DNA of 64,000 nt from Nonlabens sp. Hel1_33_55 (lineage in GTDB: Bacteria; Bacteroidota; Bacteroidia; Flavobacteriales; Flavobacteriaceae): contig NZ_LT627735.1 in NCBI RefSeq assembly GCF_900101765.1, positions 2,331,344 through 2,395,343 of the forward strand. The letters run 5' to 3'. Position 1 is the first letter of the stretch, and each line of letters begins with the position of its first letter. The position numbers and the translations under genes were made by a program. Below are positions 27,886-51,067 of the stretch, piece by piece. The notes under the pieces are model-generated. The model saw only the letters and a program-made list of their open reading frames with translations. It did no database searches and had not been told where the DNA came from.

Positions 27886-28644
27886 CTAGCTGGTCAATTT
27901 ACGCAGTTCTTCCATTTGTTGTTGAAGAGCATTCATTTTACTAGAAATATCGTTTGCAATCTCAGGCAAACGACGGTAGAAGACATATCTCGCGCGCCAT
28001 AGTTCTTTAATTTGTGTAAGCTCGAGTGTCACATCCTCTATTTTTTTATGATCTGCTCTCAAGATCAATTTTTTGCCTGTGATGTACATCCTGCGTAATA
28101 TGAATTGATCTGCAGTGATCGCTAGCACCATGGTACCTGCATTTAATTTGGGGATTACTGCAGTAGGAACACGCTCTGATATAACGATGTCCTTGGGAAA
28201 CAAACCTTCATCACGGCTCGTCATTTCTAAACTATCTACTGTGTAAGCAATGAATTCTTTCTCAAGATTGATAGGCAGACTCAATTGAGGCATGTCTTCA
28301 ATAAACTGGTCGTTCTCTCTGTATTGAAGATATTCACTAGCATTATTAGGAGTAATACAGGGCACACAGGCAAATTTTTCTCTTTCTAAATCATCAGGAG
28401 AGATCGTCAGTTCATCATTAAATCTTAGCAATTGATTCACCGTTAATTCTGCAGTGAGCATATGGTCAATAGAAATGCTAAAATAATTAGCAATCATAAT
28501 GATTGTTTCAATTTTTGGTTCACTACGTCCTTCTTCATAAGCGCCTAATGTACCACGCTTTAAATTAAACAAGTCGGCAAATGCTTGCTGTGACAAACCC
28601 TTAACTCCACGTATCTTTTTGATGTTTTTTCCGAAAAAGGACAT
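27886..28644 (-). CDS. XRE-family helix-turn-helix transcriptional regulator with C-terminal domain
   Basis: N-terminal Cro/C1 HTH (IRGVKGLSQQAFADLFNLKRGTLGAYEEG) plus a C-terminal domain of about 180 aa. Divergent from the ybjN-pspA operon. Confidence 0.65.
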   Translation of the reverse strand: MSFFGKNIKKIRGVKGLSQQAFADLFNLKRGTLGAYEEGRSEPKIETIIMIANYFSISIDHMLTAELTVNQLLRFNDELTISPDDLEREKFACVPCITPNNASEYLQYRENDQFIEDMPQLSLPINLEKEFIAYTVDSLEMTSRDEGLFPKDIVISERVPTAVIPKLNAGTMVLAITADQFILRRMYITGKKLILRADHKKIEDVTLELTQIKELWRARYVFYRRLPEIANDISSKMNALQQQMEELRKLTS

Positions 28645-28941: not shown

Positions 28942-29343
28942 ATGCCAATGGACAATTATTTTAATACCATTAAGGACTTCCTACAAGAACTTAATTTTGA
29001 GATTACCAGAGAAAATCGTGCTGACGGCATTCTTGTCATTGAAAAAGAAAGTGTAGGTGTAAAGAACCTGATATTAGGGATTGCACCTCCTATTTTAATC
29101 ATGGAGCAATATATTTTCAAAATCAATAACAAAAATGAAGAGGTTTTTAAAAGCCTACTTCAAAAAAATAGAGATATCATTCACGGCGCTTTTGTACTGG
29201 ATGAGAGTGGATCTAAAGTCATCTTTAGAGACACCCTGCAAATTGAGAACATCGACTTGAATGAACTAGAAGGTACACTTAATTCCTTAAGCTTGCTTTT
29301 AAGTGAATACTCTGACCACATTATTAAATTTTCTAAATACTAA
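28942..29343 (+). CDS. YbjN-domain protein (putative sensory transduction regulator/chaperone-like)
   Basis: 133 aa acidic alpha/beta protein, commonly paired with PspA in Bacteroidetes. Confidence 0.5.
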   Translation: MPMDNYFNTIKDFLQELNFEITRENRADGILVIEKESVGVKNLILGIAPPILIMEQYIFKINNKNEEVFKSLLQKNRDIIHGAFVLDESGSKVIFRDTLQIENIDLNELEGTLNSLSLLLSEYSDHIIKFSKY

Positions 29344-29355
29344 AAAAACAATATC

Positions 29356-30069
29356 ATGAACATATTCAAACGACTTTTCAAAATAGGACAGGCAGAAGCA
29401 AACGCAGCTGTCAACAACATGGAAGACCCAATCAAAATGACCGAACAAGGAATTCTTGATATGAAGGAAGACCTGAATAAAAGCGTAGAGGCAATGGCTC
29501 AAGTAAAAGCACTAGCTATACGCTCCAAAAATGACAAGGAAGAACATGCTGCTACCGCAAAGGATTATGAGCAAAAGGCTATAATTATTCTAAAGAAAGC
29601 CCATAGTGGCGAGATGGATACTACAGCAGCAGATCGACTTGCTAAAGAAGCGCTAGCCAAAAAAGAGGCAGCACAACTTAATGTAGAGCGTGCCCAGAAG
29701 GAAAGTGAGAAATTTGAGAATAACGTGGCTCAATTGAAGTCAACTATTGACACGATCAAATCTAATATCACCAACTGGGAGAATGAATTAAAGACATTGA
29801 AAGCGCGTGTCAAAGTAAGCGATGCAACCAAAAATGTCAATAAACAAATGGCAGAACTTGACAGCACTGGCACTGTGAGCATGCTTGAGCGTATGAAGGA
29901 AAAGGTAGCTCAAGACGAAGCACTTGCTGAAGCCTACAGCGACATGGCTGGATCAAGAACAAGTGTTGATGACGAAATCGACGCTGCGGCAGACACCAAA
30001 CAAGCTAAAGTGGATGACGACCTTGCCAAATTAAAAGCACAATTGGGCATCAAGAAGGATGAAGCATAA
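29356..30069 (+). CDS. pspA: PspA/IM30 family protein (phage shock protein A homolog)
   Basis: MNIFKRLFKIGQAEANAAVNNMEDPIKMTEQGILDM matches the PspA N-terminus (MGIFSRF...NALLDKAEDPQKL). It is a 237-aa coiled-coil protein. Confidence 0.8.
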   Translation: MNIFKRLFKIGQAEANAAVNNMEDPIKMTEQGILDMKEDLNKSVEAMAQVKALAIRSKNDKEEHAATAKDYEQKAIIILKKAHSGEMDTTAADRLAKEALAKKEAAQLNVERAQKESEKFENNVAQLKSTIDTIKSNITNWENELKTLKARVKVSDATKNVNKQMAELDSTGTVSMLERMKEKVAQDEALAEAYSDMAGSRTSVDDEIDAAADTKQAKVDDDLAKLKAQLGIKKDEA

Positions 30070-30139: not shown

Positions 30140-30853
30140 TTGGAAAACTATTTCAACATTCTATTTTCTGAAGTCAACATCACGCTTACCGTGCTGCTGC
30201 TCATCCTTATTGTTTATTGGATTTTTACCATGATCAGCGGTATTGATTTTGACCTGGATGTAGATGTGGACATCGATGTTGATGTGGATGCAGACCTAGA
30301 CATGGATTTTGACAGCATTGAAGGTGGCAACCTTGATTTTGAAGATGTTGCCAATGCAGAAGTGGATCGCGAGCACGTGGTCAACAAACGAACTCGACAG
30401 CTCAAATGGTGGCAAATCATATTGATTTACTTCAATTTTGTGGGTTTGCCGTTCATGTTCACCTTCACGTTTTGGATTTTCTTATGGTGGCTCATGAGCG
30501 TTTTAACAACAGCAGTAACAGGAAGCTATGATAATGTTTTTGGCTTCATTATCGTGCTGGCAGCTCTCATTCCAGCGCTATTTGTGACAAAAATCGTAAC
30601 CACACCATTTAAAGCGTTTTTCAAAAACTTGAATAAAGATGGCGACAAGGCAGTAGACTTTCTAGGCCGCAGCGCTATCTTGATGTCCTCCATTTCAGGA
30701 GATAAGTTGGGCAATGCAGAAGTGCTTGCCGATGGAAATCCCATGAGTATTTACGTCAAGTCGTTGGATGGATCAGAATTACGCTTTCGTGAAAGCGTGC
30801 TCATCATCAAGCAATCGGACGATAAAAATTATTTTTTAGTGAGTAAGGCGTAA
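30140..30853 (+). CDS. NfeD-like (YqiJ/DUF1449) membrane protein with C-terminal OB-fold
   Basis: N-terminal TM segment, an acidic DVDVDID repeat, further TM segments, and a C-terminal beta-barrel (GRSAILMSSISGDKLGNAEVLADGNPMSIYVKS). It sits immediately upstream of the flotillin gene, as in yqiJ-yqiK. Confidence 0.6.
   Translation: MENYFNILFSEVNITLTVLLLILIVYWIFTMISGIDFDLDVDVDIDVDVDADLDMDFDSIEGGNLDFEDVANAEVDREHVVNKRTRQLKWWQIILIYFNFVGLPFMFTFTFWIFLWWLMSVLTTAVTGSYDNVFGFIIVLAALIPALFVTKIVTTPFKAFFKNLNKDGDKAVDFLGRSAILMSSISGDKLGNAEVLADGNPMSIYVKSLDGSELRFRESVLIIKQSDDKNYFLVSKA
30782..30797. repeat. 16-bp palindrome, 15/16 copy in the NfeD CDS (RFRES)
   Basis: CGCTTTCGTGAAAGCG. Confidence 0.8.
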
Positions 30854-30861
30854 TCCATAAA

Positions 30862-30888
30862 GATGTCAGTCTGAGCTTGTCGAAGACG
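30862..30888 (+). repeat. Solo arm of the MITE-like repeat family (GATGTCAGTCTGAGCTTGTCGAAGACG)
   Basis: Exact family consensus, directly after the NfeD stop codon. Confidence 0.7.
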
Positions 30889-30964: not shown

Positions 30965-33037
30965 ATGGACGGAATTTTAGGAATTATTGTAACAGGACTG
31001 GGAATTCTCCTTTTCCTAGTCATCGTTTACTTCGCGATCATCGCGATGTTTTACAAAAAAGTACATCAAGGACAGGCGCTGGTGCGTACTGGTTTTGGAG
31101 GTACTAAAGTCGCGACAGACAAAGGTTTGTATGTAGTGCCGGTTTTCCACCGTGTGGAGACCATGGATATTTCAGTTAAGAAAATCCAGATTGAGCGTAT
31201 GGGCGTGGAAGGATTGATATGTAAGGATAACATGCGAGCCGATATCAAAGTAGCCTTTTTTGTACGCGTTAATAATGAGGTTGAATACATCAAGAAAGTA
31301 GCACAGACTATAGGTGTGCAGCGCGCTTCTCGCATTGAAACGCTAGAAGATCTTTTTGAAGCCAAATTCTCTGAAGCGCTCAAAACTGTAGGTAAGAAAT
31401 TCCAATTCATTGATTTGTACGAGGCTCGTCGGGAATTTCGCGATGAGATTGTGGATATCATTGGAACAGACTTGAATGGTTACACGCTGGAAGACTGTGC
31501 GATTGACTTTCTAGAGCAAACAAGTGTTGAATTTTTAAAGAAAGACAACATTCTGGATGCAGAAGGTATCAAGAAGATTACCGAATTGACCGCTGCGCAA
31601 AATATCAAGGCCAACTTGATCACTCGTGATGAAGAAAAAACAATTCGCAAGCAAGATGTTGAGGCTCGGGAAGCAATTCTCGAACTGGACAAACAACTCG
31701 CCGAAAAAGAAGAGCAACAAAAACGTGAGATTGCTAACATCAAATCTCGCGAAGACGCAGAAACTCTCAAAGTCGCCGAAGAAGAAAGACTCAAGTCTGA
31801 AACGGCACGCATAGCAACTGAGGAAAAAGTGAAAGTTGCCGAAGAAAACATGCAACGTCAGATTATTGTTGCAGAGAAAAACAAGCAACGTACCGATGCT
31901 GTAGAAACAGAACGCGTAGAAAAAGATCGACTATTAGAAGCAACAGAACGGGAAAGAGTCGTGACTCTGGCACAAATCGAGAAAGAGAAAGTAGTTGAAG
32001 TTGAGAAAAAGAACATCCAGGATGTCATTAGAGATCGCGTGGTTCTTGAAAAAGGAGTAGTTCAGGAGCAGGAAAACATGAAAGACATTGAAGCTTTCAA
32101 ATCTGCCGATCGTGCTAAACAAGTAGCCATTACAAATGCTGAGGCAAAAGCACAAGACGACTTGATCCGTATCACAATTGCTGCAGAGGCCTCTAAACAA
32201 GCAGCTGTTCAAAAAGCAGAGGAAATCAATATCGAAGCTCTTGCTCATAAAGAAGCCAGTGAAAAAGAAGCTGATGCACGTAAAATTCTTGCAGAAGCTA
32301 CCGCTAAAGAAGAAGCAACCGTTGGTTTATCTGAAGCACAAGTAATGCATGCAAAAGCTGAGGCTAGTGAACGTCAAGGAATTGTTGACGCACTGATCAT
32401 CCAGAAAAAAGCTGAAGCAGAGGCAAGCGGAATCACCGCAAAAGCGGCTGCAAAACGTCAAGATGGACTTGCTGAAGCCGAGGTTATCAAAGAAAAAGCC
32501 CTTGCAGATGCTGCTGGAATTGAAGAGAAAGCCAATGCGATGAAGAAACTCGATGGTGTAGGTAAAGATCACGAAGAGTTCAAACTACGTCTGGACAAAG
32601 AACTTCAAGTAGACCTGGCGCAAATCAACATCCAGAAAGATATTGCAGATGCACAAGCACAAGTGATAGGAGATGCATTGAGAGCGGCTAAGATTGATAT
32701 CGTTGGTGGTGAGACCATGTTCTTTGAACAAATCATCGGTCAGATCACTAAAGCCAAAGGTTATGATAGACTCGTGAATCATTCAGAAACGGTTACTGAA
32801 GTAAAAGATGCGATTCTAGGAAGTGGTGACGTGAAAGGGAATTTGCTTGATAAAGTCAAGGACTTTGCAGACCGCTACAACATCAGTTCTGAAGACATTA
32901 AAAACCTAACGATTGCCAATCTATTGATTGATTTACAGGCAAGAGTTGACAATAATGAAGACCAGAACATCTTGACCAACCTTATGAATCTGGCTAAAGG
33001 AATGGGGTTGTCCAATAAGAAGTTGGGTAATATCTAG
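30965..33037 (+). CDS. Flotillin-family SPFH-domain protein (YqiK-like)
   Basis: N-terminal TM segment, an SPFH/band-7 domain (QALVRTGFGGTKV...KVAFFVRV) and a long EA-rich coiled coil; 690 aa. Confidence 0.8.
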   Translation: MDGILGIIVTGLGILLFLVIVYFAIIAMFYKKVHQGQALVRTGFGGTKVATDKGLYVVPVFHRVETMDISVKKIQIERMGVEGLICKDNMRADIKVAFFVRVNNEVEYIKKVAQTIGVQRASRIETLEDLFEAKFSEALKTVGKKFQFIDLYEARREFRDEIVDIIGTDLNGYTLEDCAIDFLEQTSVEFLKKDNILDAEGIKKITELTAAQNIKANLITRDEEKTIRKQDVEAREAILELDKQLAEKEEQQKREIANIKSREDAETLKVAEEERLKSETARIATEEKVKVAEENMQRQIIVAEKNKQRTDAVETERVEKDRLLEATERERVVTLAQIEKEKVVEVEKKNIQDVIRDRVVLEKGVVQEQENMKDIEAFKSADRAKQVAITNAEAKAQDDLIRITIAAEASKQAAVQKAEEINIEALAHKEASEKEADARKILAEATAKEEATVGLSEAQVMHAKAEASERQGIVDALIIQKKAEAEASGITAKAAAKRQDGLAEAEVIKEKALADAAGIEEKANAMKKLDGVGKDHEEFKLRLDKELQVDLAQINIQKDIADAQAQVIGDALRAAKIDIVGGETMFFEQIIGQITKAKGYDRLVNHSETVTEVKDAILGSGDVKGNLLDKVKDFADRYNISSEDIKNLTIANLLIDLQARVDNNEDQNILTNLMNLAKGMGLSNKKLGNI

Positions 33038-33174
33038 GTTGATTTCTAGGGCGCTACACGGTTCTTTCTTTAGAAAGAATCGTGTCGGGCTATCCGCTAT
33101 ATCTTTTAAGCCTTATAGCCTTAAAAGGATACCGCTGCTATCCCTAGCGCGAGAAGCCAAAATATAATATTGAC

Positions 33175-33199
33175 TGTCAGTCTGAGCTTGTCGAAGACG
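33175..33199 (+). repeat. Solo arm of the MITE-like repeat family, upstream flank of the GIY-YIG gene
   Basis: TGTCAGTCTGAGCTTGTCGAAGACG. Confidence 0.7.
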
Positions 33200-33223
33200 G
33201 AATCATTAATCACTAAACCATCT

Positions 33224-33544
33224 ATGAAATTCTATTTTGTCTACATCTTAAAATGCAGCGATGATAGTTTTTACGCAGGTTTTACTTCTAATCTTGACCA
33301 AAGACTTGCAGAACATCAAATGGGTAAATCCGCTGGATATACATCTAAAAGATTACCCTTAGAATTGGTCTGGTTTGAGCAGTTTTTGGATTATCCAGAA
33401 CAAGCAATTCAATGGGAAAAGCGAATCAAAGGCTGGTCAAGGAGAAAGAAACAGGCATTAATCGATGGAAATTGGGACAATTTGATTTTGTTTTCAAAAA
33501 ACTACGCTGAGTATGGAAATAAGATTAAAAGAGTTGAAGATTGA
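33224..33544 (+). CDS. GIY-YIG nuclease family protein (YhbQ/UPF0213-like)
   Basis: FYFVYILKCSDDSFYAGFTSNLDQRLAEHQMG is a GIY-YIG motif. The protein is about 106 aa and is flanked on both sides by repeat-family copies. Confidence 0.7.
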   Translation: MKFYFVYILKCSDDSFYAGFTSNLDQRLAEHQMGKSAGYTSKRLPLELVWFEQFLDYPEQAIQWEKRIKGWSRRKKQALIDGNWDNLILFSKNYAEYGNKIKRVED

Positions 33545-33556
33545 TTCAAATTGAAT

Positions 33557-33660
33557 TGTCAGTCTGAGCTACACCTGTGCTGAGTTTATCGAAGTATCGA
33601 AGACGTTGTAGAAACTAATAAAGATGGTGCAGTCGCACTTCGACAAGCTCAGTGTGACAC
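33557..33660. repeat. Complete MITE-like element (inverted arm pair, left arm with internal duplication)
   Basis: Left arm TGTCAGTCTGAGC[TACACCTGTGCTGAGTTTATCGAAGTA]TCGAAGACG. Right arm GTCGCACTTCGACAAGCTCAGTGTGACAC is the reverse complement of the left arm. Confidence 0.7.
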
Positions 33661-33691
33661 AAACATTGAAAAATGAATATTGATACAACGA

Positions 33692-33775
33692 GATGTCAGT
33701 CTGAGCTTGTCGAAGACGATATAGGGACTAACAAAGCTTTTTAGAAGTCGCACTTCGACAGGCTCAGTGTGACAC
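33692..33775. repeat. Complete MITE-like element (inverted arm pair)
   Basis: GATGTCAGTCTGAGCTTGTCGAAGACG ... GTCGCACTTCGACAGGCTCAGTGTGACAC; 84 bp hairpin-forming. Confidence 0.7.
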
Positions 33776-33805
33776 GAGCATATAAAAAAGAGAAATGAAA
33801 TCGCA

Positions 33806-33831
33806 ATGTCAGTCTGAGCCTGTCGAAGACG
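33806..33831 (+). repeat. Solo arm of the MITE-like repeat family
   Basis: ATGTCAGTCTGAGCCTGTCGAAGACG, about 30 bp upstream of the giant ORF start. Confidence 0.7.
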
Positions 33832-33862
33832 ATTCGAACCAATAAAACTAACTACCATTTCA

Positions 33863-36800
33863 ATGGCAGATAAAGAACTAAAAGACACCACACAACTGGA
33901 CTCTGGAACTTACGAGATCATCCAGAGTCGATTGCTCAAGCAAAAAAATGACTTGCAGCAACGACTCCATGCGCTCAACGAAGAGCGCAAGAAAGTCTTC
34001 GGCTCGCTGGAAACTAGGTTGATTGCAAACGACCGTGTGAATACAGAGAATAACTGTATCGCTCGTGATATTGTGACCATCGGCAAGAACAGCATCTTTG
34101 GTTATAACGTGCACTTTGGATTACGTACAGAGATCAATCTGAGTGATGTTTTTAGTATTTATGAATTTGATCGGGAAGGGAAAGATGGTGATGCATTACG
34201 CTTTCGCGACCTGCCTGCCGGCAGGCAGGAAGCTGGGTCAAGTTTAGAACTCATTGAAGACCCAATCTTTCAAACCGACTTTGAAAATCTTTACAAGTAC
34301 TATCGCAATACCATTTTTTCCAAGTTTGCGATCATAGGGAATTACCTGCACATGGTTTTCCAGCTGAGTGATTCAGTGACGGATATCAAGACCTTTAAGT
34401 GGTTGATAAAAGAAAACGAATTGCAGTATGTGGACAACCGCAGTGAACACGAGTACCGTTTCCCAGCGCAATATGGATTTCAATGGAAAGAAGCTGGACG
34501 TGATAACCAGCGTGCAGGAAAGCACGGCCATGTATCGATTTTAGACAAAGTTTTTGTAGAAACTATAGGTGGTGATTTAACCATTAAAGTAGAAGATAAT
34601 ACAGACGATGGTCAAGGAATCTATCGGGAAGATGTAGAGCACCGCGACCAGACACTCGATGATGGTCAATACCGATATGCAGATTTAGGGAACCTCATCG
34701 TTCTAGAAATCAAACCATTTCAAGAAGAACCGCGTCATTTTGTGTACAACCACAAGATCAAGGAAGTAGAAAAAATTGACAGTATTGCTCAAGCTGCAGT
34801 GCTGTTACCAGACGAGCAAGGAATCATTTTCCCTAGCGGTTATTACTTGCAAACTGGTGAGTACAACGTGTTTCCAAGCGATGCTGGAAAACTAAAATTT
34901 CAGCAAAAAATTGCCTCGCCTAATGGTGAAGATCATTTATACGTTTTCTATAATGCTGCACAAGGATTGTACGTTCTCATGTCGTACAACGTGATTGATC
35001 AATCGGTAAAGACACCTATCGTTTGTAATGGATTTACAATTTTGGAACAAGGTGAGCTGTGCTACTTCCGTAATGGAGATGAGCAGACGAAGCACCACAT
35101 GATGCAAATATGGCAAACCCCTTATTTGAAAGGTGATATTGTACCGTCAGAGCATCAAGATACCATGCTCTATAAAATAGGTAACAAGGACATTGTAAAA
35201 GCAATGGCCGAAGCAAACGAGCTACTGACTCTTTTAAATAAAGAAGACAGCTACGGCGGTTTATATGATGATATCGCTCGTGCCTCAAAAGATATCCTAG
35301 ACGCATACTATTGGCTGCCAGAAGAGGAAACCAAGCAGATCAATCTGCCTCTTGGCGAAATCAACAAAGCATCTAATGCTGCGATTGACGAGTTTGAGAA
35401 AGTCAAGCAAATGCGCAAACAAGCAGCTGCAGAGACTAAGGATATTTCTAAAAAGGCTGAGACGCTATTCAGCAAAATAAAAAGCACGTCGTTCAAATCT
35501 ATTAATGATTTTGTAGAGCTGTTAACTCAACTGCGCAGTTTGCGTGGTGAAGCGATAGGTTTGTATGAAATACGTTATGTAGATACCGATTTCATAAAAG
35601 GAATCGAGGATCAAATCGTGGAGCAAAACGAAGTGATTTCTCGTCGTGCGGTTACCTTTTTGTTAGATGATAAGGCTCTAGCACCTTATCATGAGGCTGT
35701 TGCCGAAAAGCAAAAAGCTCTCGATGCTACTAAAAAGGTTATCGAGATTAAAAACCTTGAAAAGGAGGTCAATCAGATTGCAGAAGATCTGGAGTTACTA
35801 ATAGAAATCGTTTCTAATCTGGATATTGAGGACACGTCGCATTCCACTAAAATTATTGAGAACATCTCCTTGATATTTGCGACCATCAATCAGGTAAAAG
35901 CGGCGATTAAAAACAAGGTGAAAATTGTAGGTAAAAAAGAAGCTCAAGCCGATTTTGCCGCACAGCTGAAGTTGATTGATCAGAGCATTATCAATTACCT
36001 AGACATTGCCAACACGCCAGAAAAGTGTGATGAATTCTTAACTAAAATCTCCATACAGCTAGAAGAGCTAGAAGGAAAGTTTGCGGATTATGATGAGTAC
36101 ATCACAGAAATTATTGCCAAGCGTGAAGAAGTGTATGCCGCTTTTGATAATCGCAAAAGCAGTCTGATAGAAGCGCGTAATAAAAAGGCAATATCCTACC
36201 AAAACGCTGCAGAACGTATTATCAAAGGGGTTCAAAAAAGAGCACAATCACTGGATAGCGCGACAGAAATCAACGGCTATTTTGCCAGTGATTTAATGAT
36301 TAATAAAGTGCGAGACATCATCGCACAATTAAAAGATCTGGAGGACGCTGGAAAAGCCGAAGCCATTGAAACAGCCCTCAAAGTAGCTCGAGAAGATGCC
36401 TTGAGAAAACTCAAGGATAAGAACGAGCTTTATGAGGATGGTGATAACATCATCAAGCTGGGCAAGCATAAATTTGGCGTTAATAAACAACAGCTGGACT
36501 TAACCATAGTCTTCAAGGATAATGCGCTGTTTTATCATCTTACAGGGACCGATTTCTATCAGGAATTACACAATGAGATCCTGACGCAATCCAAAGGAAT
36601 CTGGAATCAAGAATTGGTTTCAGAAAACTCTGAAGTCTATCGGGCGGCTTATCTCGCCTACTCTATCTTTAAAACTGGAGACAAAGAAGCTTTGAGAATG
36701 ATGAGTCCTACAGATTTGCTATTGCGCGTGCAGGAAATAGCGAGCGGCAACTATTCTGGCGGTTATGTGAAAGGTGTTCACGATCACGACACAGCACAGA

Positions 36801-38875
36801 TTTTAAGCGTTTTATTACACAAACATCATGATCTAGGCTTGCTCACATATGATCCAAACACGAGAGCAAAAGCGCAGTTTTTTTGGAACAGTTTAGAGCA
36901 GTCGCAACGTTCCAACCTCAACCGTATTTTAAAAAGTGCTGGCGAGGTGTTATCTGTTTTTCCAGATAGTAAAGAGTATGATTTTATTGTGGAGGAATTG
37001 GCTGATGAGATTTTTAAAGCCAATAGTGCAAACAAGACCGACTTCGACAAGCTCAGTCTGACAAAGGAAAAAACACCAAGCGATGTCACGTTGAGCCTGT
37101 CGAAACGGAGTTTAGATTCTATAAAGCATAATTCCAACTCGACTGCTGGAAACGAACACCAAATCGCTGAATATCTATTCAATGAACTAAAAGACAACGA
37201 TCATTTTACTGTAAGTACGAGTGCTATTCAGTTAAAGGAAGCTTTTGAGAAAAAAATAAAATCTCAAAATGCCGATTTGAAATTCAAGAAAAGTCTAGAA
37301 GCCTGTGAGGACGAGAAGTCTAAAGTAGAACTGGTGAGACATTGGGTTTCTGCTTTCGCGAAAGCGGAATCAAAACAAGCTTTATTGCCCTATACAAACG
37401 AATGTGTTGCTAACATCCTCTACGGAAAACTGACTGCCGATAAAACGGTAGCAATATCGCCTGTGGAAACAATTACAGGATTAAAAGGATCGCATGGAAC
37501 GATCAACGAAAGTGAATTTGTATTCAATTACCACGAGTTTGTGAACGTTTTGGAGCATTTTACTACTGTAAAAGTGCCAGCTTATGAAACCTTTAGAAAA
37601 GCAAAACATCAAGTAACTGAAGAGTTAAAAGAATCGTTGCGATTGGAAGAATTCAAGCCACGAGTGCTAAGCTCATTTGTGCGTAACAAATTGATCGACC
37701 AAGTATATTTCCCATTGATAGGCGATAATCTGGCCAAACAATTAGGAACCGTAGGCGATACGAAACGTACCGACCGAATGGGATTGTTGCTCTTGATATC
37801 ACCACCAGGTTATGGTAAAACCACCTTGATGGAATACATGGCTAACCGGTTGGGCTTGATTTTTATGAAAATCAACGGTCCAGCTATAGGTCACGATATT
37901 ACCTCTGTAGATCCAGAAGCTGCTTCTAATGCGGCAACTCGTGAAGAACTCAAAAAGCTGAATCTTGCTTTTGAAATGGGTGATAACGTGATGTTATATC
38001 TGGATGATATCCAGCACTGTAATCCCGAGTTTTTACAAAAGTTCATCAGTCTGTCTGATGGAACACGTAAGATTGAAGGAGTTTATAATGGCAAGCCTAA
38101 AACCTATGATCTACGTAGTAAGAAATTCTGCGTGATCATGGCTGGTAATCCTTATACAGAAAGCGGAGATAAATTCCAGATTCCAGACATGCTTGCCAAC
38201 CGTGCAGATATTTATAATCTTGGAGATATCATAGGCGATACGGCTCATTTGTTTGAACTAAGTCTGGTTGAAAATGCATTAACGAGCAATCCAGTATTAC
38301 AACAGTTAAGTAACAAGCACTTTGATGATGTATATGCCTTAATCGATCGAGTTCAAAATGGCGCCAGCGATAACGAACTCAAAGGAAACCACAGCAACCA
38401 AGAAATAGCCGACTATGTCGCTGTCCTAGAAAAGGTATTGAAGATACGGGATACGGTTCTTAAAGTAAATGAAGCGTACATCGCCAGCGCAGGAATGGAA
38501 GATGCTTATCGTACGGAGCCTTCTTTCAAACTACAAGGTTCTTATCGTGATATGAATAAACTGGTCGCTAAAGTTGTTCCTATCATGGATGATAAAGAGT
38601 TACAAACTCTCCTATCATCACACTATGAAAGTGAATCACAAACCTTAACCAGCGCTGCAGAAGCAAACTTGTTGAAATACAAAGAACTGGTAAGCACCAT
38701 AAAACCAAAAGAGCAAGAACGATGGACAGCCATCAAAGAAATTTTTGCAAAAAATAACAAGCTGAACGGTCTAGGTGGGCAAAATCAAATGTCTCAAGTA
38801 TTGAATCAGATGATGGATTTTACTGAAAATCTAGAGGGAATAAAAGAGGTGTTGAAGAAAGGGTTAGCTAAGTAA
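33863..38875 (+). CDS. Giant multidomain protein (1670 aa) with C-terminal AAA+ ATPase module (MoxR/AAA_5-like)
   Basis: Continuous ORF. Walker A LLLLISPPGYGKTTL, Walker B VMLYLDDIQHCNPE, sensor-1 FCVIMAGNPYT and arginine ANRADIYNL at about aa 1300-1450. The N-terminal 1250 aa comprise a coiled coil, a beta-rich region and long helical arrays. It contains an in-frame copy of the repeat family at 37041-37107. Confidence 0.6.
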   Translation: MADKELKDTTQLDSGTYEIIQSRLLKQKNDLQQRLHALNEERKKVFGSLETRLIANDRVNTENNCIARDIVTIGKNSIFGYNVHFGLRTEINLSDVFSIYEFDREGKDGDALRFRDLPAGRQEAGSSLELIEDPIFQTDFENLYKYYRNTIFSKFAIIGNYLHMVFQLSDSVTDIKTFKWLIKENELQYVDNRSEHEYRFPAQYGFQWKEAGRDNQRAGKHGHVSILDKVFVETIGGDLTIKVEDNTDDGQGIYREDVEHRDQTLDDGQYRYADLGNLIVLEIKPFQEEPRHFVYNHKIKEVEKIDSIAQAAVLLPDEQGIIFPSGYYLQTGEYNVFPSDAGKLKFQQKIASPNGEDHLYVFYNAAQGLYVLMSYNVIDQSVKTPIVCNGFTILEQGELCYFRNGDEQTKHHMMQIWQTPYLKGDIVPSEHQDTMLYKIGNKDIVKAMAEANELLTLLNKEDSYGGLYDDIARASKDILDAYYWLPEEETKQINLPLGEINKASNAAIDEFEKVKQMRKQAAAETKDISKKAETLFSKIKSTSFKSINDFVELLTQLRSLRGEAIGLYEIRYVDTDFIKGIEDQIVEQNEVISRRAVTFLLDDKALAPYHEAVAEKQKALDATKKVIEIKNLEKEVNQIAEDLELLIEIVSNLDIEDTSHSTKIIENISLIFATINQVKAAIKNKVKIVGKKEAQADFAAQLKLIDQSIINYLDIANTPEKCDEFLTKISIQLEELEGKFADYDEYITEIIAKREEVYAAFDNRKSSLIEARNKKAISYQNAAERIIKGVQKRAQSLDSATEINGYFASDLMINKVRDIIAQLKDLEDAGKAEAIETALKVAREDALRKLKDKNELYEDGDNIIKLGKHKFGVNKQQLDLTIVFKDNALFYHLTGTDFYQELHNEILTQSKGIWNQELVSENSEVYRAAYLAYSIFKTGDKEALRMMSPTDLLLRVQEIASGNYSGGYVKGVHDHDTAQILSVLLHKHHDLGLLTYDPNTRAKAQFFWNSLEQSQRSNLNRILKSAGEVLSVFPDSKEYDFIVEELADEIFKANSANKTDFDKLSLTKEKTPSDVTLSLSKRSLDSIKHNSNSTAGNEHQIAEYLFNELKDNDHFTVSTSAIQLKEAFEKKIKSQNADLKFKKSLEACEDEKSKVELVRHWVSAFAKAESKQALLPYTNECVANILYGKLTADKTVAISPVETITGLKGSHGTINESEFVFNYHEFVNVLEHFTTVKVPAYETFRKAKHQVTEELKESLRLEEFKPRVLSSFVRNKLIDQVYFPLIGDNLAKQLGTVGDTKRTDRMGLLLLISPPGYGKTTLMEYMANRLGLIFMKINGPAIGHDITSVDPEAASNAATREELKKLNLAFEMGDNVMLYLDDIQHCNPEFLQKFISLSDGTRKIEGVYNGKPKTYDLRSKKFCVIMAGNPYTESGDKFQIPDMLANRADIYNLGDIIGDTAHLFELSLVENALTSNPVLQQLSNKHFDDVYALIDRVQNGASDNELKGNHSNQEIADYVAVLEKVLKIRDTVLKVNEAYIASAGMEDAYRTEPSFKLQGSYRDMNKLVAKVVPIMDDKELQTLLSSHYESESQTLTSAAEANLLKYKELVSTIKPKEQERWTAIKEIFAKNNKLNGLGGQNQMSQVLNQMMDFTENLEGIKEVLKKGLAK
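37041..37107. repeat. MITE-like element (arm pair in opposite arrangement) embedded in-frame in the giant ORF
   Basis: CTTCGACAAGCTCAGTCTGACA ... GATGTCACGTTGAGCCTGTCGAAACGG; translated as ...DFDKLSLTKEKTPSDVTLSLSKRS... Confidence 0.65.
37351..37366. repeat. 16-bp palindrome, 15/16 copy in the giant ORF (AFAKA)
   Basis: TGCTTTCGCGAAAGCG. Confidence 0.8.
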
Positions 38876-38953: not shown

Positions 38954-39234
38954 ATATCCTCTATACATCTTAAAGAGACTCAATCGCCTTAGTCGCTTTT
39001 TTTATACTCGCTTCTTTAGATTGACTAGTAAGATCAGCGGCAATAATTTTGACATCGTTAGTTATTTAAGAGCCGAGAAAAAGGCTTCACATAACAAGCT
39101 ATTAATCAACATTACTTCCAACTGACGCGCACTTATAAAATATACGCAATCAATTAAACAAGCGATCATCAAATCATTTTCACAATTTTTTAGCCTTGTC
39201 TAAAAAAAGATTTATACAAACCAAATTAATATTT

Positions 39235-39242
39235 TACCTTTG
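39235..39242 (+). promoter_or_regulatory. Candidate -7 promoter box TAccTTTG (leaderless dtxR-family transcript)
   Basis: Matches TAnnTTTG and ends 5 bp before the ATG at 39247, which would give a leaderless mRNA. Confidence 0.3.
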
Positions 39243-39246
39243 TCGT

Positions 39247-39903
39247 ATGCATTCAGTATCAGAGGAAAACTATATTAAGGCCATCTATCATCTTCAAAAA
39301 GGAACTGCGCTAGTTTCTACTAATGAGATTGCTGGAGAAATGAATACTAAGGCTTCCTCGGTTACGGATATGCTTAAAAGGCTGGCAGATAAAAATCTAG
39401 CAGAATACATTCCTTATAAAGGCTCGCGACTCACAAAGAGCGGCATCGATTGTGCCAACCAGATCGTTAGAAAGCATCGGCTTTGGGAGGTTTTTCTGGT
39501 AGAAAAGCTAGATTTCACTTGGGATGAGGTTCATGATGTGGCAGAACAGCTGGAACATATCCAGTCTCGCAAACTCATTGATGAACTGGATAAGCACTTG
39601 GGCTTTCCCAGAAAGGATCCGCATGGCGATCCTATTCCTGACCGAGATGGGAATTATGAAGAGGTCCAACAAATCCAATTATCAAAACTTACCAAGGGTG
39701 ATCAGGGAACCATCACTGGCGTTATCGATACGTCCAGTAGTTTTTTAAAATATTTGGATAAGCACCAGATAGAGTTGGGCAGTCATATCGAGGTCTTGGA
39801 ACGTGAAGAATTTGACGGGTCCTTCGTTATTAAAACCGATTATAAAACTCTACACATTTCACAGGCGATCGCAAACAATATTTATTTAAACTCCCAATCA
39901 TGA
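39247..39903 (+). CDS. DtxR/MntR-family metal-dependent transcriptional regulator with FeoA-like C-terminal domain
   Basis: The N-terminus MHSVSEENYIKAIYHL...SSVTDMLKRLADKNL is a DtxR HTH, followed by a metal-binding/dimerisation domain and a C-terminal SH3-like domain. Confidence 0.75.
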   Translation: MHSVSEENYIKAIYHLQKGTALVSTNEIAGEMNTKASSVTDMLKRLADKNLAEYIPYKGSRLTKSGIDCANQIVRKHRLWEVFLVEKLDFTWDEVHDVAEQLEHIQSRKLIDELDKHLGFPRKDPHGDPIPDRDGNYEEVQQIQLSKLTKGDQGTITGVIDTSSSFLKYLDKHQIELGSHIEVLEREEFDGSFVIKTDYKTLHISQAIANNIYLNSQS

Positions 39904-40640
39904 AAAAGTGGGCGTATTTCATGATGACTAGCTTTACGGCCTCAGGTTTTGCGCAAGAACTCATAGAGCCTGCGACAACCATGAATACTGGTGAATTTCA
40001 AGCACAGATTGCTGTGATCTATACAGAAAATAGTGAGTTCCGCTTTCGCGAAAGCGTACTAACCTACAACAATACCCTACTACTTTATGGCATTTTTCCT
40101 CATATGGAATTGCGTCTGGGAATTGATGTCAACTCCTCAGAAACCACGGATGGCGGCGCTAGGATAGGTGATAGAACTAGCGGTACAACGCCTTTACAGA
40201 TAGGTGCTAAATATCGCTTTTTCCAGCAGACTGAATCCACTCCGGAGATATCAGTCATGAGTCACGTATTTCTGCCACTTACGGCTAGTTCTGACAACAA
40301 ACCAAACTATACTGGATATGATCTCTGGGTTCTAGGATTACATCAAATCAACGATCAACATGCCGTCCGTGTTAATATAGGAGCGGCTACTGGTGGAGAT
40401 TCAAGAGGTATTTTGCCATTATATATTCTGGCCCACAACTGGCTACCCTTTGGGAAATGGGGTTTGAATACTGAAGTATATGGCGAATTTCCATCAAATG
40501 AATCATCCAAACATTTCTTTGACGTTGGTATTAGCTACTTTTTTAGACCTACGGTTCAGCTAGACCTCAACGCTGGTCGTGGCATCAACAATAACCAATC
40601 GATTCTCGCCAGCATGAGACTCACTTATACTATTATTTGA
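39900..40640 (+). CDS. Outer membrane beta-barrel protein (putative metal-uptake porin), first gene of the metal ABC operon
   Basis: Signal peptide, alternating beta-strand pattern and C-terminal aromatic residues. The ATGA overlap with the dtxR stop suggests translational coupling. Confidence 0.4.
   Translation: MKKWAYFMMTSFTASGFAQELIEPATTMNTGEFQAQIAVIYTENSEFRFRESVLTYNNTLLLYGIFPHMELRLGIDVNSSETTDGGARIGDRTSGTTPLQIGAKYRFFQQTESTPEISVMSHVFLPLTASSDNKPNYTGYDLWVLGLHQINDQHAVRVNIGAATGGDSRGILPLYILAHNWLPFGKWGLNTEVYGEFPSNESSKHFFDVGISYFFRPTVQLDLNAGRGINNNQSILASMRLTYTII
40041..40056. repeat. 16-bp palindrome (perfect), in the OM barrel CDS (RFRES)
   Basis: Exact match. Confidence 0.95.
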
Positions 40641-41551
40641 ATATGAAACATGGAATTTTAATTATCATAACCTTAATACTAGTATCCTGTGGTGGTCCCA
40701 AGGCAAGTGATGGAAAGTTACAAGTTGTTACCACAACAACCATGATTACTGATATGGTCAAAAACATAGGCGGCGACAAAATTGATGTCCAAGGATTGAT
40801 GGGTAGCGGCGTCGATCCACACTTATATAAGGCAAGTGAAGGTGATGTATCTAAGCTCTTCAACGCAGACCTCATCATTTATAACGGGCTGCATCTAGAA
40901 GGAAAATTGGTCGAAGTGTTCGAAAAAATGAATGCGCAGGGAAAAAACACATTGGCGATTAGTGATGCGCTTGATAAAAGCACGTTGATAGGTAGCGAGT
41001 ATTTTGCCAGTAGCTACGATCCGCATATTTGGTTTGATGTAGATTACTGGAAGTCAATGACAATCTATATTACCCAACAATTGTCAGACCTAGACCCAGA
41101 AAATGCGGAAACCTATAAAGCCAACAACGATGCCTACTTAGCAACTATTGATCAATTGGAAAATGATCTCAAAGCAACCATAGAGCAATTACCAGCAGAG
41201 AAGAGAATCCTTGTAACCGCCCATGATGCATTTAATTACTTTGGTAGAAAATTTGGTTTTGAGGTGGTTGGATTACAAGGACTTTCTACAGCAACCGAAG
41301 CTGGTGTGCAAGATGTCCAGCGCATTACTCAATTCATTATCGATAATCAAGTCAAAGCCGTTTTTATAGAAAGTAGCGTACCGCGACGTACGGTTGAAGC
41401 ATTGCAGGCAGCGGTACGTGCCCAAAGTCAAGAGGTACAAATAGGTGGAGAGTTATATAGCGATGCCTTAGGAAGTGCTGGCACACCTGAAGGCACCTAC
41501 GTTGGAATGTATCGCCATAACGTAGAAACCATAGTTAACGCACTGAAATAA
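40637..41551 (+). CDS. Metal (Mn/Zn) ABC transporter substrate-binding protein, TroA/ZnuA family
   Basis: Lipoprotein signal (LVSCGG); cluster-9 SBP motifs ([22 protein letters not shown] ... PHIWFD). Confidence 0.8.
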
Positions 41552-42288
41552 TGGAAGAAAAGATAGCAGTAGCGGTAGATGATTTAACGGTAGCCTACAA
41601 TTATAAGCCTGTGTTATGGGACATAGATTTATCCATCCCAGAAGGCGTTCTTATGGCCATCGTTGGTCCGAATGGTGCAGGAAAATCGACGCTGATAAAA
41701 TCCATTTTGGGAATCATTGATCCTATTGCTGGGTCTGTGGCAATTTATGGGAAACCCTATAGCAAACAACGCGATAAAGTAGCCTACGTACCACAAAAAG
41801 GTAGCGTGGATTGGGATTTCCCTACGACAGCGCTGGATGTGGTAATGATGGGAACTTATGGCTCTCTGGGCTGGATCAAGCGCCCAGGTGCCAAAGAAAA
41901 AAAACAGGCGCTGGAAGCATTGGAAAAAGTTGGAATGCTGGCATTTAAAAGTAGACAAATCAGCCAATTGAGTGGTGGACAGCAACAGCGTATTTTCCTT
42001 GCCAGAGCATTAGTGCAGAACGCTGCGATCTATTTCATGGACGAACCTTTCCAAGGTGTGGATGCAACCACTGAAATCGCCATTATCAACATCCTCAAAG
42101 AATTACGTAAGGCAGGAAAAACGGTCATCGTCGTACATCATGATTTACAGACCGTTCCGGAATATTTTGACTGGGTGACTTTTTTAAATGTAAAACACAT
42201 TGCTACGGGACCAGTGAAAGATATTTTCAACGATGATAACCTGACTAAAACTTATGGTATTAATTATAAAGTAGCAGTGCAGCAATAA
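41551..42288 (+). CDS. Metal ABC transporter ATP-binding protein
   Basis: Walker [10 protein letters not shown], signature LSGGQQQR, Walker [13 protein letters not shown]. Confidence 0.85.
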
Positions 42289-42291
42289 TAT

Positions 42292-42307
42292 CGCTTTCGC
42301 GAAAGCG
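42292..42307. repeat. 16-bp palindrome (perfect), intergenic inside the metal ABC operon
   Basis: Exact match. Confidence 0.95.
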
Positions 42308-42335
42308 GAAAAACTCAAGAAATAATAAAGAGCAG

Positions 42336-42356
42336 ATGCTGAAATGAATTCAGCAT
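42336..42356. other. Conserved hairpin ATGCTGAA-ATGAA-TTCAGCAT
   Basis: Same loop and inner stem as the 20862 hairpin; lies within the operon between the ATPase and permease genes. Confidence 0.4.
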
Positions 42357-42395
42357 GACAGAAACGGGAACTTGGAACTTTAAAACCAACAATTA

Positions 42396-50777: not shown

Positions 50778-50853
50778 CCTGCAAAGATAGGATGCTTTGC
50801 GATGTGTGATTGCGATTGGGTCAGGAATCAGTATGCGTGCATAGTAAATTGCC

Positions 50854-50986
50854 GAGTTCCGAGTTCCGAGTTCCGAGTTCCAAGTTCCAAGTTCCAAGTT
50901 CCAAGTTCCAAGTTCCAAGTTCCAAGTTCCAAGTTCCAAGTTCCAAGTTCCAAGTTCCAAGTTCCAAGTTCCAAGTTCCAAGTTTA
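50854..50986. repeat. Heptanucleotide tandem repeat (GAGTTCC)4(AAGTTCC)14 plus one degenerate unit
   Basis: 18 perfect 7-bp units read directly from the sequence, 77-210 bp upstream of the probable plsC start on the minus strand. Confidence 0.9.
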
Positions 50987-51067
50987 TAAAATATTTACTC
51001 GCAAATTAGAATGTGCTTCTTCACACCCAAACTTTTCAAACCTTTGTAACAAACTATCACAAAATAA

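Follow-up and report, generated by a model that had tools for sequence, protein, structure and literature searches.

The 1670-residue protein encoded at positions 33863 to 38875 of the window (the whole stretch of 64,000 nucleotides of Nonlabens sp. Hel1_33_55 DNA that was analysed) is, on its profile matches, a genuine member of the catalogued DUF3686/DUF7902 family of giant ATPases. Since a flotillin gene adjoins the ATPase gene, often together with a gene for PspA, the ATPase is probably a remodeller of membrane scaffolds, serving as the soluble subunit of a flotillin/PspA-linked membrane-stress module. Both the family and the operon are already known. Ravi et al. 2024 (PMC11237479) described the same operon and ATPase computationally and predicted a role in membrane dynamics, and the remodeller idea, which follows from that work, is thus not new.

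The giant ATPase and its family

33863..38875 (+), giant ATPase gene, 1670 aa, ATG start, no internal stop

The product of this ORF was 100% identical to an annotated NCBI protein of Nonlabens sp. Hel1_33_55, and more than 5000 homologues were found at E ≤ 1e-10. The ORF is, therefore, far beyond chance, and the 1670-aa reading frame reported in an earlier note on this DNA was confirmed. The same note had found no recognisable domain in the first 1250 residues and had proposed a profile search. This search contradicted it: PF12458 (DUF3686) matched residues 30-483 over the full length of the model (599 bits against a cut-off of 25, E 5e-180), and PF25472 (DUF7902) matched residues 604-687 (89.4 bits against a cut-off of 26, E 2e-25). 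The AAA and AAA_5 profiles also matched, and AAA_3 did not. A family alignment was made of 65 divergent full-length members with identities down to 27%, all of which were collinear. The ATPase of the window shares the family pattern of a collinear protein of 1600-2000 aa that has a single C-terminal AAA+ module with the motifs PPGYGKT, DDIQ, GNP, RAD and QGSYR.

Literature searches that covered the families DUF3686 (PF12458) and DUF7902, the link of a 'DNA repair ATPase' to flotillin, and SPFH proteins of pQBR103 returned no experiments, so that the term 'uncharacterised' used earlier holds in the experimental sense. A 2026 survey of the SPFH proteins of P. aeruginosa does not cover the DUF3686/DUF7902 ATPase. 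Two candidate Rosetta-stone fusions, P0372 (a flotillin C-terminus with DUF3686) and P0253 (a long-NfeD protease with DUF3686), were rejected as gene-calling artefacts because junk or low-complexity sequence joins their parts.

Fold of the N-terminal region

33902..34000 (+), long N-terminal helix, aa 14-46 (AlphaFold model, pLDDT 92-95)
34016..35116 (+), divergent beta-propeller-like domain, aa 52-418, ca. 28 strands, core of DUF3686 (aa 30-483)
35165..36412 (+), long-helix bundle region, aa 435-850 (AlphaFold), including DUF7902
35672..35923 (+), DUF7902, aa 604-687 (Pfam profile), within the long-helix bundle region
36449..36565 (+), small conserved beta domain, aa 863-901 (model)
36575..37639 (+), second helical domain, aa 905-1259, holding variable loop 2

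The structure prediction that had also been suggested yielded a propeller-like domain, helical bundles and an AAA+ module. Two AF2 models of the ATPase were confident (pLDDT 84.9 and 82.5), and the AlphaFold models placed a helix at residues 14-46, strands at 52-418 and helices at 435-839. The models show a divergent beta-propeller followed by helical bundles, and a coiled coil in the N-terminal helix is possible. The layout drawn from the sequence earlier, an N-terminal helix, a beta-rich region and long helices, reappeared in these models, but the beta block spans ca. 367 residues rather than 320. This block had, moreover, been called rich in tyrosine; its commonest residues were I, D, E, L, G, N, V and F, and Y was not notably enriched.

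When the N-terminal half was submitted to Foldseek, all matches were propellers, and the best of them were eukaryotic coat-type proteins (IFT-A subunits, the clathrin heavy-chain terminal domain and a nucleoporin). Blade repeats were sought by aligning the beta domain with itself using hhalign, and no off-diagonal match appeared. Sequence and profile searches of PDB sequences gave only p97/VAT P-loop matches (E ~5e-4) and no relative with a solved structure.

The AAA+ module

37760..38227 (+), AAA+ alpha/beta core, aa 1300-1455 (profiles, model and family conservation)
37799..37825 (+), Walker A SPPGYGKTT, aa 1313-1321
37991..38014 (+), Walker B MLYLDDIQ, aa 1377-1384
38069..38110 (+), beta-hairpin between a3 and b4 of the AAA+ core (model)
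38132..38158 (+), sensor-1 VIMAGNPYT, aa 1424-1432
38195..38221 (+), Arg-finger position ANRADIYNL, aa 1445-1453
38228..38872 (+), helical lid and C-terminal helical region, aa 1456-1670
38531..38548 (+), LQGSYR, invariant motif and candidate sensor-2, in the C-terminal helical region

All four motifs that had been quoted for this module (SPPGYGKTT, MLYLDDIQ, VIMAGNPYT and ANRADIYNL) were present, and the earlier picture of a giant protein with a single AAA+ module was borne out, with catalytic motifs that are conserved in the family. The module had been placed in the last 180 residues; its core actually occupies residues ca. 1300-1455 and is followed by ca. 215 more. PPGYGKTT, LDDIQ, AGNPYT, IPDMLANRAD and LQGSYR were at least 95% conserved among the 65 divergent members, and the AAA+ motifs of the family were retained in the Pseudomonas and Deinococcus relatives. 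The Walker B motif is DD, not DE, throughout the family, and this may make hydrolysis slow or switch-like rather than that of a motor. An aromatic pore-loop motif after beta-2 was absent from the sequence and from the family alignment, which argues against Vps4-style threading. The ATPase did not show the features that mark Vps4 and the classical AAA clade, where a MIT domain precedes a classical-clade core that lacks the pre-sensor-1 hairpin.

Gene neighbourhood and its conservation

27886..28644 (-), HTH_3 regulator with a weak S24-like C-terminal region, divergently transcribed
28942..29343 (+), CesT_Tir_1 chaperone-like protein (E 2e-58)
29356..30069 (+), PspA/IM30 protein of the ESCRT-III superfamily (PspA_IM30, E 1e-41)
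30140..30853 (+), 3-TM protein with an acidic loop and a C-terminal beta domain, YqiJ/NfeD-like (sub-threshold Pfam matches)
30965..33037 (+), flotillin-type SPFH protein, 690 aa, one N-terminal TM segment (Band_7, E 2e-13)

Within this sequence-based analysis, the gene context is the decisive evidence on the role of the ATPase. The block reads CesT-like chaperone, PspA, 3-TM protein and flotillin, with the ATPase last. Among the 66 informative loci, namely those with at least 6.5 kb upstream of the ATPase gene, flotillin lay directly upstream in 64, and the 3-TM gene was likewise found in 64. PspA was present at 47 of these loci and CesT at 42, and an HTH_3 regulator adjoined the operon in 43. 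Unbiased clustering of the ORFs within ±10 kb of 82 loci revealed no conserved partner beyond the flotillin, 3-TM, PspA, CesT and HTH genes. The position of the ATPase beside the same five genes was stable across Flavobacteriia and Cytophagia. The linkage of flotillin, 3-TM protein and ATPase spans five phyla, including Planctomycetota and Actinomycetota, and the trio was also found in Streptomyces ferrugineus, Symmachiella dynata, Deinococcus grandis and, with PspA, P. fluorescens pQBR103. PspA and CesT were missing from ca. 30% of the Bacteroidota loci and from the Actinomycetota, Planctomycetota and Deinococcus examples; PspA is, therefore, not an obligatory substrate.

Transmembrane prediction gave no segment for the ATPase, one for the flotillin and three for the small partner, and the ATPase is accordingly predicted to be cytoplasmic. 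The 3-TM protein of the window was compared with the YqiJ/YuaF (NfeD-like) type of the operon of Ravi et al. 2024; it has three TM-like segments but had no Pfam match, and its homologues gave only sub-threshold matches to YqiJ_N (E 0.001-0.07) or NfeD (E 0.002-0.03). No convincing candidate for an S24 Ser-Lys dyad was identified in the neighbouring HTH_3 regulator. The locus has the same domain order, size and five-gene order as the operon of Ravi et al. 2024, and the ATPase differs from their type inessentially, by two lineage-specific in-frame repeat insertions. The earlier note did not mention the CesT-PspA-3TM-flotillin operon, which is the most informative evidence.

Proposed role of the ATPase

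The proposed module would consist of the ATPase, a membrane-anchored flotillin (SPFH) scaffold and the YqiJ/NfeD-like 3-TM protein, to which a CesT-like chaperone and an ESCRT-III-type PspA would be added in Bacteroidota and some Proteobacteria. The single AAA+ module would form a ring or another oligomer, which fits the invariance of the Arg-finger arginine and of the Walker A and sensor-1 motifs. The beta-propeller and ca. 800 residues of helical bundles could provide a docking platform for the flotillin and/or a PspA polymer on the cytoplasmic side of the inner membrane, where ATP binding and hydrolysis would lead to assembly, disassembly or reshaping of the scaffold. The analysis shows the architecture, the conserved motifs, the lack of TM segments and the linkage of the genes in five phyla; that the proteins touch each other, which substrate is acted on, which way remodelling runs and how the ATPase oligomerises are inferred. 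Gene linkage falls short of proving a physical interaction. A remodelling rather than a metabolic role, as favoured earlier, was judged the more plausible.

A 2025 review (PMC7619361) describes bacteria as being without a Vps4-like regulator for PspA, and PMC10936438 connects SPFH proteins with PspA in B. subtilis and with ESCRT loci of archaea. Since the ATPase family is flotillin-adjacent in at least five phyla and often co-encoded with PspA, it is the obvious candidate for a Vps4-like controller of PspA polymers or of flotillin turnover in bacteria. As in the Vps4/ESCRT-III system, an AAA+ ATPase gene stands beside a gene of the ESCRT-III superfamily, and the predicted shared role is the recycling of membrane-bound polymers. 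In its functional pairing of an AAA+ machine with a scaffold of the SPFH family, the proposed module would resemble FtsH-HflK/C and the m-AAA protease with prohibitin (PMC13220708); the ATPase differs from FtsH in having no protease domain, no TM anchor, a different flotillin type and a predicted cytoplasmic action. That the family is the bacterial counterpart of Vps4 and recycles, at the inner membrane, flotillin cages, polymers of PspA (ESCRT-III) or both is suggested here only tentatively. If this were true, bacteria would possess a widespread membrane-remodelling machine, built from an SPFH scaffold, an ESCRT-III-type protein and an AAA+ ATPase, that arose independently of the archaeal/eukaryotic ESCRT/Vps4 system. 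The family bears on the assembly and turnover of flotillin scaffolds in bacteria, and tractable hosts include Pseudomonas fluorescens with pQBR103, Proteus mirabilis, Vibrio, Streptomyces and Flavobacteria.

Alternative explanations

The ATPase could instead be a chaperone or extractase that acts not on the flotillin or PspA scaffold but on membrane or secreted clients gathered by a flotillin cage, with the propeller binding the clients, much like FtsH in the HflK/C cage minus its protease domain. However, neither a protease nor a partner peptidase belongs to the conserved block, the aromatic pore loop is absent and Walker B is DD. This explanation seems unlikely. A horizontally spread anti-phage (abortive infection) or conflict module, with the ATPase as its sensor or switch and with a membrane guarded or perturbed by flotillin and PspA, would suit the occurrence of the family on megaplasmids (pQBR103, Deinococcus pDEGR-1, and plasmids of Streptomyces and Hymenobacter), its patchy occurrence over five phyla, the conserved switch-like DD Walker B and the repressor-like HTH/S24-type regulator conserved nearby. 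Against this stand the stable five-gene setting in Flavobacteriia and Cytophagia, a conserved block without a nuclease or other effector gene, and phage searches that yielded no homologue, while the search of PADLOC-DB gave only mad8 (E 0.0016, in the P-loop region alone) and a PspA match that was coiled-coil noise. We consider such a module very unlikely.

The assignment of the AAA+ module to the MoxR/AAA_5 dynein-like clade in the earlier note would imply a MoxR-type chaperone that, with a VWA partner, matures or inserts a metal cofactor or complex. MoxR-group AAA+ proteins such as CbbQ, NorQ and RavA, whose relatives include dynein and midasin, are ca. 300 aa in size, whereas the ATPase carries ca. 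1300 additional N-terminal residues. AAA_5 (PF07728) scored 28.5 bits against a cut-off of 22, and PF00004 AAA scored 29.4 bits. Of the structural inserts of clade 7 (a helix-2 beta-hairpin, a pre-sensor-1 hairpin and a pre-sensor-2 insert), the helix-2 beta-hairpin was not seen in the model. AAA_3 (PF07726) gave no match at E ≤ 1, and ClpA scored as high as any MoxR relative. No VWA gene was conserved within ±10 kb of the 82 loci, and Walker B is DD and not DE; a MoxR-type role is, hence, highly improbable. Pfam and NCBI name the family 'ATPase involved in DNA repair' or 'DNA repair ATPase'. Apart from these names, all that favours a function in DNA repair is that the P-loop weakly resembles RuvB, two models of which scored 20.5 and 17.3 bits (cut-offs 282 and 299, respectively). 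None of the profile searches revealed a nuclease, SMC, RecN or DNA-binding domain, the neighbourhood contained no conserved repair gene, every conserved partner is a membrane protein, and the literature search found no paper backing the name. A repair function is scarcely credible, and the name, which misleadingly hides the family from membrane researchers, was probably derived from generic coiled-coil and P-loop similarity. Remodelling of a flotillin/PspA-linked scaffold remains the preferred reading.

In-frame insertions and palindromes

34208..34228 (+), 21-nt in-frame insertion encoding DLPAGRQ, aa 116-122, in variable loop 1 (pLDDT <50)
37037..37108 (+), GIY-YIG-associated hairpin (MITE-like) element, in-frame, encoding TDFDKLSLTKEKTPSDVTLSLSKR, aa 1059-1082
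37351..37366 (+), 15/16 match to the Nonlabens palindrome CGCTTTCGCGAAAGCG, encoding conserved SAFAKA

The perfect 20-nt palindrome CCTGCCTGCCGGCAGGCAGG at 34210-34229 represents a true insertion near 34200. The in-frame MITE-like element reported earlier is also real: its arm had 7 matches in the window against 0 expected, and the element folds at -25.8 kcal/mol (z = -4.3). Residues 1061-1092 around it are predicted to be disordered (pLDDT <50) and lie in the region of variable loop 2. Two in-frame palindrome copies had likewise been read as invasions. Matches to CGCTTTCGCGAAAGCG do exist at 34199 and 37351, but they were rejected as insertions on the basis of the conserved residues they encode (LRFR and SAFAKA, respectively) and of a codon comparison with Winogradskyella; the match at 37351 is, judging from its codons, one that formed in place via synonymous codon choice.

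By comparison with the family, the DLPAGRQ and hairpin insertions are lineage-specific and lie in its two variable loops, which supports the tolerance to in-frame repeat insertion proposed earlier. They are probably functionally neutral passengers in two disordered hypervariable loops. These surface loops accept ca. 7-40 extra residues and are practical sites for tag insertion. The 825-bp spacer that separates the flotillin gene from the ATPase gene contains further insertions, namely a GIY-YIG element, a Flavo-1 RNA and two hairpin elements.

Identity and family of the ATPase

The ATPase gene (33863..38875, + strand) starts with ATG and runs without interruption for 1670 aa, and the ORF listing and translation bore out this reading frame together with the four motifs quoted in the earlier note:

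aa 1313-1321, SPPGYGKTT
aa 1377-1384, MLYLDDIQ
aa 1424-1432, VIMAGNPYT
aa 1445-1453, ANRADIYNL

The product matched an NCBI protein of Nonlabens sp. Hel1_33_55 (Flavobacteriaceae) with 100% identity, and more than 5000 clusters (90% identity) matched it with E<=1e-10, one Pfam architecture being common to all matches listed; thus, the gene is real and conserved. When aa 1-560 were searched exhaustively with HMMER, 765 cluster representatives (50% identity) were returned, of which the complete proteins were nearly all 1600-2000 aa, and further family members belong to Proteus, Vibrio, Photobacterium and Halomonas and to many Actinomycetota. The statement that nothing was recognisable in the first 1250 aa did not hold, since Pfam matched DUF3686 (named 'ATPase involved in DNA repair') at aa 30-483 (E 5e-180) and DUF7902 at aa 604-687 (E 2e-25) there. 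Over aa 1309-1432, Pfam gave AAA (29.4 bits) and AAA_5 (28.5 bits). NCBIfam contained no family model for the ATPase and yielded RuvB P-loop noise alone, far under the cut-off. The family is already catalogued and computationally described, and its function is a predicted one. Overall, what the earlier note observed is confirmed, and its reading of the gene is supported in part.

Two AlphaFold2 models (mean pLDDT 84.9 and 82.5), obtained with a 61-sequence alignment of Bacteroidota and Planctomycetota, together span the whole ATPase and predict the following order:

aa 14-46, long helix
aa 52-418, block of ca. 28 strands
aa 435-850, long helical bundles
aa 863-901, small beta domain
aa 905-1259, second helical domain
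aa ca. 1300-1455, AAA+ alpha/beta core with a beta-hairpin between a3 and b4
after the AAA+ core, helical lid and C-terminal region

No TM-like segment was found in the ATPase.

The AAA+ module

The earlier note had assigned the C-terminal module to the MoxR/AAA_5 dynein-like clade. The AAA+ comparison gave figures of 12.5 for ClpA, 12.5 for dynein, 12.1 for midasin, 12.1 for CbbQ (239/267 residues aligned), 11.9 for NorQ (229/254 residues aligned), 11.0 for Hsp101, 10.7 for ClpB, 10.4 for Lon, ca. 10.1-10.2 for Cdc48/NVL, 9.9 for Vps4 and 8.8 for McrB; MoxR, dynein or midasin relatives thus make up four of the five best, by a small margin. Several points speak against MoxR membership: the Pfam search gave no AAA_3 match, the AlphaFold2 model has no strand pair at the helix-2 insert site (b2 to a2), neither a VWA gene nor another extra partner was conserved near the ATPase gene in 82 loci, and Walker B reads D-D instead of D-E, both in the Pseudomonas and Deinococcus proteins and in at least 95% of a set of 65 divergent members. 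The clade assignment is thus possible but unproven, and placement in MoxR proper is not supported. A Walker B of the form hhhhDDxQ is also found in DnaA, a slow, switch-like ATPase. Walker A, sensor-1 (AGN), the a4-end arginine, which occupies the canonical Arg-finger position, and the downstream LQGSYR were at least 95% conserved among the 65 members, which argues for an active, oligomerising ATPase.

Gene neighbourhood

Upstream of the ATPase gene lie the following genes:

27886-28644, -, HTH_3 regulator, divergent, with a weak S24-like C-terminal region
28942-29343, +, CesT_Tir_1 protein (E 2e-58)
29356-30069, +, PspA/IM30 (E 1e-41)
30140-30853, +, 3-TM protein with an acidic loop
30965-33037, +, SPFH/flotillin, 690 aa, with one N-terminal TM segment

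We fetched 80 genomic loci encoding relatives and counted neighbours in the 66 whose upstream sequence reached at least 6.5 kb. Flotillin and the 3-TM gene were each present in 64/66 loci, PspA in 47, the regulator in 43 and CesT in 42, with constant order and orientation wherever present. All-against-all ORF clustering of the loci revealed no other conserved neighbour, barring antisense shadow ORFs that overlie the flotillin and ATPase genes, and no conserved gene downstream of the ATPase. Among more distant organisms, the 3-TM-flotillin-ATPase trio also occurs in Streptomyces ferrugineus (flotillin E 3e-159), Symmachiella dynata (flotillin E 3e-225) and Deinococcus grandis, and on the P. fluorescens megaplasmid pQBR103 it is appended to a PspA-rhomboid-DUF2491-DUF350-DUF1190-glutathionylspermidine-synthase-like block. 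On this plasmid of SBW25 (locus L203, 85-98 kb), the trio joins the second type of PspA operon that Ravi et al. described, and an MvaT/MvaU-type silencer gene follows the trio block. The plasmid pQBR103 is well studied and a convenient experimental system.

The HTH of the regulator is well conserved, and no convincing Ser-Lys dyad was found in its S24-like region, where the Peptidase_S24-like match (16.3 bits) lay under the cut-off of 23.3. The regulator may be the stress-responsive repressor of the operon; S24 or LexA is not mentioned in the PSP paper (PMC11237479). In a draft assembly of N. ulvanivorans JCM 19298 (locus L042, 9977-15009), the ATPase orthologue is split into three overlapping ORFs, probably by sequencing frameshifts rather than as a true pseudogene. 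Downstream, at 39196-43508, are a DtxR/MntR-type repressor, an outer-membrane MetA-pathway-like protein and a ZnuA/ABC/ABC-3 metal transporter. An MntR homologue turned up in none of the 80 loci and the downstream region is unconserved, which marks these genes as unrelated to the operon.

Proposed role

The identical operon has been described by Ravi, Aravind, Gennaro et al. (mSystems 2024, PMC11237479), who found abbreviated flotillin-3TM-ATPase operons to be more widespread and proposed a role in sub-membrane dynamics. Our literature searches turned up no experimental study of the ATPase. We consider it reasonably likely that the ATPase is the cytoplasmic, remodelling ATPase of a flotillin-based membrane-stress module to which PspA often belongs. 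Its propeller and helical arrays would dock on the scaffold, for whose assembly, disassembly or reshaping a ring or oligomer of the AAA+ module would spend ATP. Architecture, motif conservation, the lack of a TM segment and gene linkage in five phyla were the observations behind this mechanism; we infer the physical contact, substrate, remodelling direction and stoichiometry of the module. Roughly 30% of the loci in Bacteroidota lack PspA, as do the examples from Actinomycetota, Planctomycetota and Deinococcus, which makes flotillin plus the 3-TM protein the more likely core partner. The ATPase lacks an aromatic pore loop, which, with the D-D Walker B, speaks against threading in the manner of Vps4 and fits a switch or a MoxR-like remodeller.

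A client-directed chaperone acting inside flotillin domains seems unlikely, and a conflict or defence module is quite improbable. Still less credence is given to a MoxR-VWA chaperone, against which stand the missing AAA_3 match, the lack of a conserved VWA gene and the D-D Walker B. Least probable of all is DNA repair; neither the domains nor the gene context nor the literature backs the name 'DNA repair ATPase'. The ATPase is a candidate for bacterial flotillin/ESCRT-III dynamics, a potentially important idea that is already published; what is new in the Hel1_33_55 copy is the in-frame MITE curiosity alone.

In-frame insertions in two variable loops

Alignment with 13 orthologues showed three runs specific to the Hel1_33_55 protein, at aa 116-122, 1055-1078 and 1088-1096. 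The first, DLPAGRQ, is encoded by a perfect palindrome, CCTGCCTGCCGGCAGGCAGG, that occurs once in the window; one Nonlabens MAG protein of that alignment (P0003) has the run too, and of the loci fetched only L006 repeats the palindrome, at the corresponding position. The in-gene hairpin element, with arm ACTTCGACAAGCTCAGTCTGACA and its partner 20 nt apart, encodes TDFDKLSLTKEKTPSDVTLSLSKR and still folds (-25.8 kcal/mol, z = -4.3). N. ulvanivorans orthologues (1624 aa) are without both insertions. Further Nonlabens species have repeat-derived peptides at these two places that are permuted or different. Different in-frame repeat-derived or low-complexity loop inserts were found in:

orthologues P0016, P0032, P0003, P0004
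loci L001, L007, L008, L013, L042

These loop inserts included SLSGVEG...FDSAQS...SLRSLSGVEA in N. spongiae and a ca. 40-aa Ser/Ala/Gln-rich insert after aa ca. 105. As the alignments indicate, the two loops are recurrent insertion hot-spots in Nonlabens orthologues. The sole gap-rich regions of the family-wide alignment were aa 101-150 and 1051-1100, and pLDDT fell below 50 mainly in the two loop regions, otherwise only in the first 11 residues. The tolerance to sequence invasion suggested earlier is thus supported for these disordered loops; the part of it that relied on matches to a 16-nt palindrome, CGCTTTCGCGAAAGCG, fell, as these encode conserved residues.

The partial match at 34199 encodes LRFR, conserved within Nonlabens, and the match at 37351 encodes W-V-S-A-F-A-K-A; with conserved peptides underneath, both were ruled out as insertions. 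Nearly all Nonlabens orthologues have TCCGCTTTCGCGAAAGCG or a one-base variant at the 37351 site, and Winogradskyella has the identical peptide in non-palindromic synonymous codons; the palindrome was therefore formed in situ, over a peptide that is conserved. CGCTTTCGCGAAAGCG is present in 20 copies (at most one mismatch) in the 64-kb window versus 0 expected, for example at:

2428, 10762, 15518, 25072, 28805, 40041, 42292
44672, 47198, 49995, 53088, 54733, 56300, 59442

It occurs 4-9 times per ca. 25-kb Nonlabens locus and was absent from Winogradskyella, Tenacibaculum and the other genera checked, and is thus genus-specific. The 37351 copy was made in place by synonymous codon choice, which points to selection or biased conversion favouring the motif across the genome rather than to transposition.

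Hairpin element and GIY-YIG gene

The hairpin element is ca. 80 nt long, with arms TTCGACARGCTCAGTSTGACA and TGTCAGTCTGAGCYTGTCGAA, and elements or arms lie at:

30864-30885
33175-33196
33631-33720
33746-33833
37037-37108

Two intergenic copies fold (-34.7 and -38.8 kcal/mol; z = -5.5 and -7.1), and all seven arm matches in the window fall in the ATPase/flotillin operon. The arm was found in more than 120 metagenome stretches, where 17/17 GIY-YIG homologues lay within 0-180 nt of an arm; the flotillin operon was absent from all loci of these 17. The element resembles a MITE that small GIY-YIG genes mobilise. The spacer between the flotillin and ATPase genes holds such a gene, flanked by half-elements, and an RNA:

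33079-33162, -, Flavo-1 RNA (Rfam RF01705; 56 bits vs gathering score 42, E 3e-10)
33170-33544, +, small GIY-YIG gene (Pfam E 4e-17; probable true start ATG 33225)

The GIY-YIG gene lengthens this spacer to 825 bp and is a sporadic mobile insertion, because only 2/80 other loci hold one there (L025, Tenacibaculum; L042, N. ulvanivorans JCM 19298). The Flavo-1 RNA lies just 3' of the flotillin gene and adjoins the insertion. Elsewhere in the window, a repeat scan detected ca. 20 or more copies of a tandem 7-nt unit (GAGTTCC changing to AAGTTCC) at 50833-51005, possibly a phase-variable tract or a promoter component.
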